64,000 bases of DNA from Escherichia coli O127:H6 str. E2348/69 (lineage in GTDB: Bacteria > Pseudomonadota > Gammaproteobacteria > Enterobacterales > Enterobacteriaceae): the NCBI RefSeq assembly GCF_000026545.1, contig NC_011601.1. One strand, written 5' to 3'. Made by a program: the position numbers. This document shows positions 48,001 through 51,000 of this stretch, piece by piece (position 1 is the first letter of the stretch; each line of letters starts with the position of its first letter).

Positions 48001-51000
48001 TTTAATAATCTCGCGATATTTCTTTATGATAAATAATAATCAAATTGATAAAATCAAAATGAGAAAAAATATGAATAATTCTATTAACCATAAATTTCAT
48101 CACATTAGCCGGGCTGAATACCAGGAATTGTTAGCCGTTTCCCGTGGAGACGCTGTTGCCGATTATATTATTGATAATGTCTCTATTCTCGACCTGATCA
48201 ATGGCGGAGAAATTTCCGGCCCAATTGTGATTAAAGGACGTTACATTGCCGGTGTTGGCGCAGAATACGCTGATGCTCCGGCTTTGCAGCGGATTGATGC
48301 CCGCGGCGCAACGGCGGTGCCAGGGTTTATTGATGCTCACCTGCATATTGAATCCAGCATGATGACGCCAGTCACTTTTGAAACCGCGACCCTGCCGCGC
48401 GGCCTGACGACCGTTATTTGCGACCCTCATGAAATCGTCAACGTGATGGGAGAAGCCGGATTCGCCTGGTTTGCCCGCTGTGCCGAACAGGCAAGGCAAA
48501 ACCAGTACTTACAGGTCAGCTCTTGCGTACCCGCCCTGGAAAAGGCTGCGATGTTAACGGTGCCAGTTTTACCCTTGAACAGATGCTCGCCTGGCGGGAC
48601 CATCCGCAGGTTACCGGCCTTGCAGAAATGATGGACTACCCTGGCGTAATTAGCGGGCAGAATGCGCTGCTCGATAAACTGGACGCATTTCGCCACCTGA
48701 CACTGGACGGTCACTGCCCGGGTTTGGGTGGTAAAGAACTTAACGCCTATATTGCTGCGGGTATTGAAAACTGCCACGAAAGTTATCAGTTGGAAGAAGG
48801 ACGCCGGAAATTGCAACTCGGCATGTCATTGATGATCCGTGAAGGGTCCGCAGCCCGCAATCTCAACGCGCTGGCACCGTTGATCAACGAATTTAACAGC
48901 CCGCAATGCATGCTCTGTACCGATGACCGTAACCCGTGGGAGATCGCCCATGAAGGACACATCGATGCCTTAATTCGCCGCCTGATCGAACAACACAATG
49001 TACCGCTGCATGTGGCATATCGCGTAGCCAGCTGGTCGACGGCGCGCCATTTTGGTCTGAATCACCTCGGCTTACTGGCACCCGGCAAGCAGGCCGATAT
49101 CGTCCTGTTGAGCGATGCGCGTAAGGTCACGGTGCAGCAGGTACTGGTGAAAGGCGAGCCGATCGATGCACAAACCTTACAGGCGGAAGAGTCGGCGAGA
49201 CTGGCACAATCCGCCCCGCCATATGGCAATACCATTGATCGCCAGCCAGTTTCCGCCAGCGACTTTGCCCTGCAATTTACCCCCGGAAAACGCTATCGCG
49301 TTATTGAGGTAATCCATAACGAACTGATCACGCACTCCCGCTCCAGCGTCTACAGCGAAAACGGTTTTGATCGCGATGATGTGTGCTTTATTGCCGTTCT
49401 TGAGCGTTACGGACAACGACTGGCTCCGGCCTGTGGTTTGCTCGGCGGCTTTGGCCTGAATGAAGGTGCGCTGGCGGCGACGGTCAGCCATGACAGCCAT
49501 AATATTGTGGTGATCGGTCGTAGCGCAGAAGAAATGGCGCTGGCGGTCAATCAGGTGATTCAGGATGGCGGCGGGCTGTGCGTGGTCCGTAACGGCCAGG
49601 TACAAAGTCATCTACCGTTGCCCATTGCCGGGCTAATGAGCACCGACACGGCTCAGTCACTGGCGGAGCAAATTGACGCCTTGAAAGCCGCCGCCCGTGA
49701 ATGCGGTCCGTTACCGGATGAGCCGTTTATTCAGATGGCGTTTCTTTCCCTGCCAGTGATCCCCGCGCTGAAACTAACCAGTCAGGGGCTGTTTGATGGC
49801 GAGAAGTTTGCCTTCACTACGCTGGAATTCACGGAATAATAAAAAAAGCCCGGCGTCATGCCGGGCAAAAGTCACCAGTTACGTTTATGCCACTGTCAAC
49901 TGCTGAATTTTTTTCTCGCGACGGATTTTGCGTTCTTCCATCACCGCCACTATCGCCATCAGGCAGATACAACCAATCGCGGCGATATCCAGCGCGGCGA
50001 AGGTGCCTGCCCAGCCGGTAAGGCCGAATACCGGCGTACCATCGGCAATCATCCCCAGCCCTAACTTGGCAAAGCTGTCACCAATCAGGTAAGCGAAGGT
50101 GCCTTTAATACCATCGGCAGCGCCAATCGCTTTTTTAGGTACAAAGCCAACAGCCGCCACGCCAATCAACAATTGCGGGCCAAAGACCAGGAAACCCAAC
50201 GCAAAGAGAGAAGCCAGGTAGATATATTCGTTGCTGGCGTGTTGATACACACCGAGCGTGGCGATAATCAGCGCCAGCGCGATACAGGCCACCAGGCCAC
50301 GGCGACCGTTCGCCAGGTCAGAGAGCCAGCCCCACAGCAGCGTACCGACCAGCGCACCAGCTTCAAACAGCGTAAAGCCCTGAATCGCCACCGCTTTAGA
50401 GAGTTTCAGTTCCTGGAACGCATACACGGTTGACCACTGGTCGATACCAATACGCACCACATAGAGGAAAATGTTGGCAAAGCACAGCAGCCAGATCACT
50501 TTGTTTTTCAGCACATACTCAACAAAGATCTGCCACTTGGTCATATCGGTAGATTCTGTCTCTTTATCCTCTTCACTGATCTCCTCGCCAAACAGCTCTT
50601 CAGCTTTGCCGAGGCCATAAGATTCCGGGGAGTCGCTGCCGTAACGCAGACCGATAAAACCAACAATCAGCGCGATAATCGACGGGAAAATAAACATGCC
50701 GATGACATGACCATCGAACAGGTAATTTGCGCCGAACAGCGCCACACCTGCTGCGCCTGCACCACCAAGGTTGTGAGAAATGTTCCAGAAACCGAGGAAT
50801 GTCCCGCGTTTACGACGCGGCGTCCATTTGGTGATGGTGGAGTAACTGCACGAACCGCCGGTACTCTGGAAAAAGCCGCTTAAGGCGTAGAAGGCAATCA
50901 TCAGGAACAGGCTAACCGAGCCGCTGCCCATACTGGCGCTGAAGCCCAGCATACAAATGGCAGACAGGATCAGCATGAACGGCAGGAATTGTTTGGTGTT

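Follow-up and report, generated by a model that had tools for sequence, protein, structure and literature searches.

The DNA analysed here (the window) is a stretch of 64,000 nucleotides from Escherichia coli O127:H6 str. E2348/69 (NCBI RefSeq assembly GCF_000026545.1, contig NC_011601.1). The LEE pathogenicity island of this EPEC strain takes up most of it (~6,280-41,800); the island is inserted beside the tRNA-Sec gene (selC; tRNA at 6278-6372) and holds ler, the esc/sep type III secretion genes, tir, cesT, eae (intimin alpha), espA/D/B, espF, and espG. Three small remnants of genes are annotated at the edges of the island:

6681-6996: IS3-family transposase fragment, annotated as frameshifted, with an internal stop
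41729-41835: frameshifted hypothetical ORF
42070-42243: MFS-transporter fragment

The espF gene (7280-7891, minus strand) is labeled by RefSeq in NZ_CP059840.2 as a partial pseudogene, 'missing C-terminus'. The region contains internal direct repeats (7281-7528 versus 7419-7669, 93.6% identical), which probably represent the proline-rich modules; variation in repeat number may have caused the gene to be flagged wrongly as a pseudogene.

The adenine deaminase gene adeD lies ~6 kb beyond the espG end of the LEE, and no functional link between the LEE and adeD was seen within the window. The adeQ-adeD-uhpT locus and its sequence match those of E. coli AdeD (Ade/YicP; NF007457/TIGR01178), a member of the amidohydrolase superfamily with a binuclear metal centre. 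The locus contains the following features:

46561..47895, minus strand: adeQ, adenine permease; intact, divergent from adeD (annotation and ORF list)
47896..48070, no strand: adeQ-adeD intergenic region; AT-rich, intact, between divergent genes
48071..49839, plus strand: adeD (ade/yicP), adenine deaminase pseudogene; 1769 nt versus 1767 nt in the intact gene (RefSeq annotation and NF007457 score)
48071..48631, plus strand: N-terminal frame-2 ORF; 157 native residues including His90-x-His92, then 29 out-of-frame residues and TGA
48540..48541, plus strand: 2-bp AA insertion (alignment with the adeD of strain Z1323HEC0423; its deletion restores 588 aa)
48542..49839, plus strand: frame-1 remainder of adeD; native residues 158-588, with predicted ligands Glu185, His214, His235, and Asp284 and the Adenine_deam_C domain
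48628..48630, plus strand: in-frame ATG, native Met186; overlaps the premature stop as ATGA; called start of a 403-aa C-terminal product
49885..51276, minus strand: uhpT, hexose-6-phosphate:phosphate antiporter; intact, convergent with adeD (annotation and ORF list)

By analogy with K-12, the intergenic region at 47896..48070 is presumed to be the ade promoter and the H-NS-silenced region.

Direct reading of the sequence placed a run of four A's at 48540-48543, inside CCCGCCCTGGAAAAGGCTGCGATG. The initial annotation had proposed that the ade reading frame switches from frame 2 to frame 1 at this run, and the proposal was borne out with every coordinate correct. From the adeD ATG (48071, frame 2), translation is closed by a TGA at 48629-48631, so that the upstream frame ends at 48631 as claimed and gives a 186-aa product. 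The remainder of adeD can be read, again as claimed, only in the other frame: the frame-1 ORF at 48523-49839 (438 codons) covers it, and no other frame reads through. Profile matching against NF007457, which is 588 positions long, assigned positions 1-158 to the frame-2 product (E 1.5e-96) and positions 157-588 to the frame-1 ORF (E 3.5e-278). These results indicate that chance does not explain the split, since the two halves of one profile were matched in two frames.

The nature of the lesion was resolved by alignment with the intact adeD of strain Z1323HEC0423. Over 48500-48600, where a 1-2 bp indel had been anticipated, the sole difference was 2 bp (AA) extra in the window. Intact genes read GGAAGG and the window reads GGAAAAGG, with the extra AA directly after codon Glu157, as a tandem duplication of the AA dinucleotide would produce. 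We placed the insertion at 48540-48541, a choice that is arbitrary within the AAAA at 48540-48543. The initial annotation had allowed that reference ade genes might carry the same nucleotides in a single continuous frame, which would have made its frame assignment wrong; this was not the case, as the references read GGAAGG. When 48540-48541 were removed in silico, a 1767-nt ORF of 588 codons with zero internal stops was obtained, with two residue differences between its product and the protein of Z1323HEC0423. The repaired 588-aa translation scored 1265.5 bits over positions 1-588 of NF007457, an adenine deaminase equivalog with a curated cut-off of 768 bits, although this full-length score speaks to the past identity of adeD and not to its present working.

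The occurrence of the lesion was surveyed in a collection of 5,426 complete E. coli genomes, outside which the original assembly NC_011601 lies. By megablast, adeD was present in 5,415 of these genomes; three records matched at 100% identity across 1770 nt, and the next best matches spanned 1768 nt. The three are NZ_CP059840.2 (E2348/69, stool, Taunton, UK), NZ_LT827011.1 ('EPEC E2348/69 variety 2', Sanger Centre via Imperial College), and NZ_LT903847.1 ('EPEC1', a construct made from variety 2), and in each of them RefSeq/PGAP labels adeD a pseudogene, 'adenine deaminase, frameshifted'. Of the 5352 complete E. coli genomes that matched a 76-nt query centred on the insertion, only three did so at ≥99% identity, and these are E2348/69 itself or derive from it. 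The next-best genomes among the matches listed reached 97.4% identity over 74 nt, a value accounted for by the 2-base gap of intact genes, which lack the AA. The insertion is thus specific to E2348/69 among the complete E. coli genomes compared.

The exact 186-aa frameshift product is also on record in a collection of 15 billion proteins (NCBI, ENA, Logan), in 41 contig-index blocks, of which 24 contigs were read. Ten loci were fetched: five from ENA assemblies, one from an NCBI draft genome (GCA_053257795.1), and four from assemblies of the SRA runs SRR1554967, SRR1595973, SRR1931811, and SRR1577785. Each of them carried CCCGCCCTGGAAAAGGCTGCGATG, and thus GGAAAAGG, and none carried the wild-type string; because these assemblies may partly be re-sequencings of one laboratory strain, the count is a test of error and not evidence of natural circulation. 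On the public contigs the called 403-aa gene overlaps the end of the 186-aa gene by 4 nt, and PF01979 and PF13382 are recorded on its product.

These data bear on the possibility, raised in the initial annotation beside a genuine mutation, that the extra AA is a homopolymer artefact of one assembly and that the real adeD of the strain is intact. It is true that the lesion falls in a short run of A's and that a single public assembly, NZ_CP059840.2, is 100% identical to the window over all 64 kb. However, typical homopolymer errors affect runs longer than four A's, the error would need to be +2, and the same allele occurs in three complete assemblies from two sources as well as in 10/10 separately assembled contigs from NCBI, ENA, and SRA runs, with the wild-type string in none. 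A +2 error in a four-base run recurring across many independent assemblies is not credible, so the mutation is real, and a sequencing error, to which we give a negligible probability, was rejected. Of the two options first offered, the genuine mutation stood and the error did not. Compared with intact orthologues, the adeD gene thus carries an indel that recurs in separately assembled data, the mark of a frameshift pseudogene.

Among the ENA metagenome contigs, ERZ761547, ERZ761549, ERZ761550, and ERZ761557 consist of unrelated non-E. coli DNA fused to E2348/69 sequence. The junction falls at window position 47310, inside adeQ, in all four, and at positions 2212, 1476, 40, and 651 of the fetched loci L009, L013, L014, and L016, respectively. 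A palindromic EcoRI-containing linker, GAGTAGAATTCTACTC, is found at three of the four junctions, and L014 has only AGAATTCTACTC there, with a Tn5 mosaic-end tail, AAGAGACAG, at its left end. Rather than natural sequence, the junctions suggest chimeras formed through adaptors or linkers, or else a fragment of the locus that was cloned or spiked in.

An indel within a mononucleotide run might also suggest a phase-variable contingency switch, in which changes in A-run length toggle adeD on and off. Typical contingency tracts are far longer than 2-4 bases, and the run here has two A's in intact genes and four in the broken one. Exactly four A's were found in 13/13 checked sequences carrying the frameshift, and the remaining complete genomes lack the insertion; there is hence no length polymorphism within the lineage. 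Phase variation requires a long, variable tract, and with one this short and invariant it was rejected as exceedingly improbable.

The same comparisons bear on when the mutation arose. An AdeD allele listed in 8594 collection blocks has exactly the sequence of the repaired 588-aa protein; relative to this common allele, the adeD of E2348/69 shows no change other than the insertion. A close relative, GCA_053257575.1, carries the intact allele, and its espG and SdiA-regulated-protein genes likewise lie on the LEE side. Over 17.8 kb (40071-57838), its differences from the window amount to 6 SNPs, the AA indel, and a single 1-bp indel at 49840. The nearest complete genomes that are not E2348/69 are 99.0-99.3% identical over 22 kb. 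With the close relative intact and the complete-genome neighbours more distant, the insertion arose on the short branch leading to E2348/69 and is recent. The 1-bp indel at 49840 is one extra A in GCA_053257575.1 directly after the adeD stop codon, in the adeD-uhpT intergenic region, and one of the 6 SNPs lies at 48018, in the adeQ-adeD intergenic region.

A frameshift does not abolish a product if ribosomes cross it, and the site has some likeness to a recoding signal: a leaky or programmed -1 slip at A-AAG (48541-48544) would yield a 589-aa AdeD with an inserted Lys and leave the gene partly functional. In silico translation with a -1 slip following codon 158 (AAG) returned exactly to the native frame (...PALEKGCDVNG...) with no stop. 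The sequence A-AAG is shift-prone for E. coli tRNA-Lys (dnaX-type slippage). The likeness to dnaX-type -1 frameshifting, which combines A-AAA-AAG with an upstream Shine-Dalgarno and a downstream hairpin, is confined to A-AAG and the need for a -1 shift; the adeD site differs in lacking an X-XXY-YYZ heptamer, an upstream SD-like element, a downstream structure, and conservation. Its zero-frame heptamer is G-GAA-AAG, not X-XXY-YYZ, and the P-site tRNA-Glu would therefore be unable to re-pair. No Shine-Dalgarno-like stimulator was found in the upstream 20 nt, CTCTTGCGTACCCGCCCTG, and the predicted folding of the 81 nt on the downstream side is no more stable than that of shuffled sequence (MFE -22.9 kcal/mol; mean of the shuffles -23.95, z = +0.32). 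On either side of the insertion the sequence equals that of wild-type genes, which indicates that no stimulator has evolved, and the frameshift is not conserved, occurring in 3/5352 complete genomes of one strain lineage. Programmed frameshifting was rejected on these grounds, and a partly functional gene is a very unlikely outcome. Basal slippage without stimulators normally amounts to about a percent or less. An unstimulated tRNA-Lys slip might still produce a little 589-aa AdeD, with the extra Lys between Glu157 and Gly158, but we give only a slim chance to residual activity being kept in this way; if it were, E2348/69 would retain some adenine deaminase despite the 'pseudogene' label.

The consequence of the mutation for the protein was evaluated against the solved AdeD homologue, A. 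tumefaciens Atu4426 (PDB 3NQB), to which residues 21-541 of the repaired protein were aligned (E 2e-76). In the adenine deaminase family the binuclear centre is bound by an HxH motif, a bridging Glu, His/His/Glu, and Asp (PMC8643624). The alignment identified conserved motifs that hold the predicted ligands of E. coli AdeD, at His90/His92 (DAHLH), Glu185 (LAEMM), His214 (DGHCPG), His235/Glu236 (NCHES), and Asp284 (CTDD). The 186-aa product keeps His90 and His92 and lacks Glu185, His214, His235/Glu236, Asp284, and the C-terminal domain, and the frame-1 ORF has the remaining ligands but no HxH, so that no single polypeptide carries the full set. In this respect E2348/69 departs from other E. coli AdeD: the reading frame of its gene breaks after codon 157, leaving the metal ligands spread over more than one ORF. 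Since the frameshift separates the ligands from one another, the enzyme is almost certainly inactive, and we infer, on strong grounds, that E2348/69 most likely lacks adenine deaminase.

The ATGA at 48628-48631 is an accidental stop-start overlap at which re-initiation of a 403-aa C-terminal fragment is possible. On this layout one could envisage a split enzyme, in which the 186-aa N-terminal fragment and the 403-aa C-terminal fragment restarted at 48628 together form an active deaminase. The overlap of the premature stop with an in-frame ATG is indeed one that allows termination-reinitiation, and both fragments are predicted by gene callers. However, with a restart at Met186, native residues 158-185 are encoded by neither fragment, and among them is the conserved Glu185, which aligns with the bridging glutamate. 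The missing segment belongs to the core of the (beta/alpha)8 barrel, which makes reconstitution implausible, and the ATGA layout is an accident of one strain. A functional split enzyme was rejected for want of residues 158-185, including Glu185, and we consider it hardly conceivable.

Taken together, we are highly confident that the adeD of E. coli O127:H6 E2348/69 has suffered a genuine, recent loss-of-function mutation, the AA duplication GGAAGG to GGAAAAGG. The proposed course of events begins with this dinucleotide duplication. Translation from the normal ATG would then give 157 native residues and, after the frame shift, 29 unrelated residues before the stop TGA at 48629-48631; the ATG overlapping that stop (Met186) could permit re-initiation. 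The loss of adeD would be of little fitness cost, given that ade is H-NS-silenced ('cryptic') in E. coli, and it is plausible that this normal silencing is the reason the loss is nearly neutral.

The remark in the initial annotation that ade is cryptic in some strains agrees with the literature: where it deals with ade, PMC2753651, citing Petersen et al. 2002, describes the gene in E. coli as cryptic, H-NS-repressed, and activated by IS insertions. The K-12 cryptic ade is the same gene as the adeD of E2348/69, but the K-12 gene is structurally intact and silent at transcription only, whereas that of E2348/69 is broken in its coding sequence. Petersen, Moller and Valentin-Hansen reportedly showed in 2002 that K-12 ade is H-NS-silenced and switched on by IS insertion. 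With the coding sequence broken, relief of H-NS silencing could not restore activity in E2348/69. Our literature search, which did not take in the pseudogene list of the E2348/69 genome paper, found nothing relevant that names the ade pseudogene of this strain or its accessions.

The adeD lesion is an ordinary strain-specific frameshift pseudogene, already flagged in public annotation; it has little import beyond work with E2348/69 and brings no new biology. E2348/69 is the prototype enteropathogenic E. coli, common in laboratories and used in human volunteer studies, and the AA insertion offers a convenient marker for telling it from close relatives. For metabolic models and purine-salvage experiments with this strain, adenine deaminase should be taken as absent. 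Without the enzyme, adenine could enter the IMP/GMP pool only via Apt and nucleotide/nucleoside routes, and neither an hns mutation nor an IS insertion would activate the 'cryptic' ade in E2348/69.
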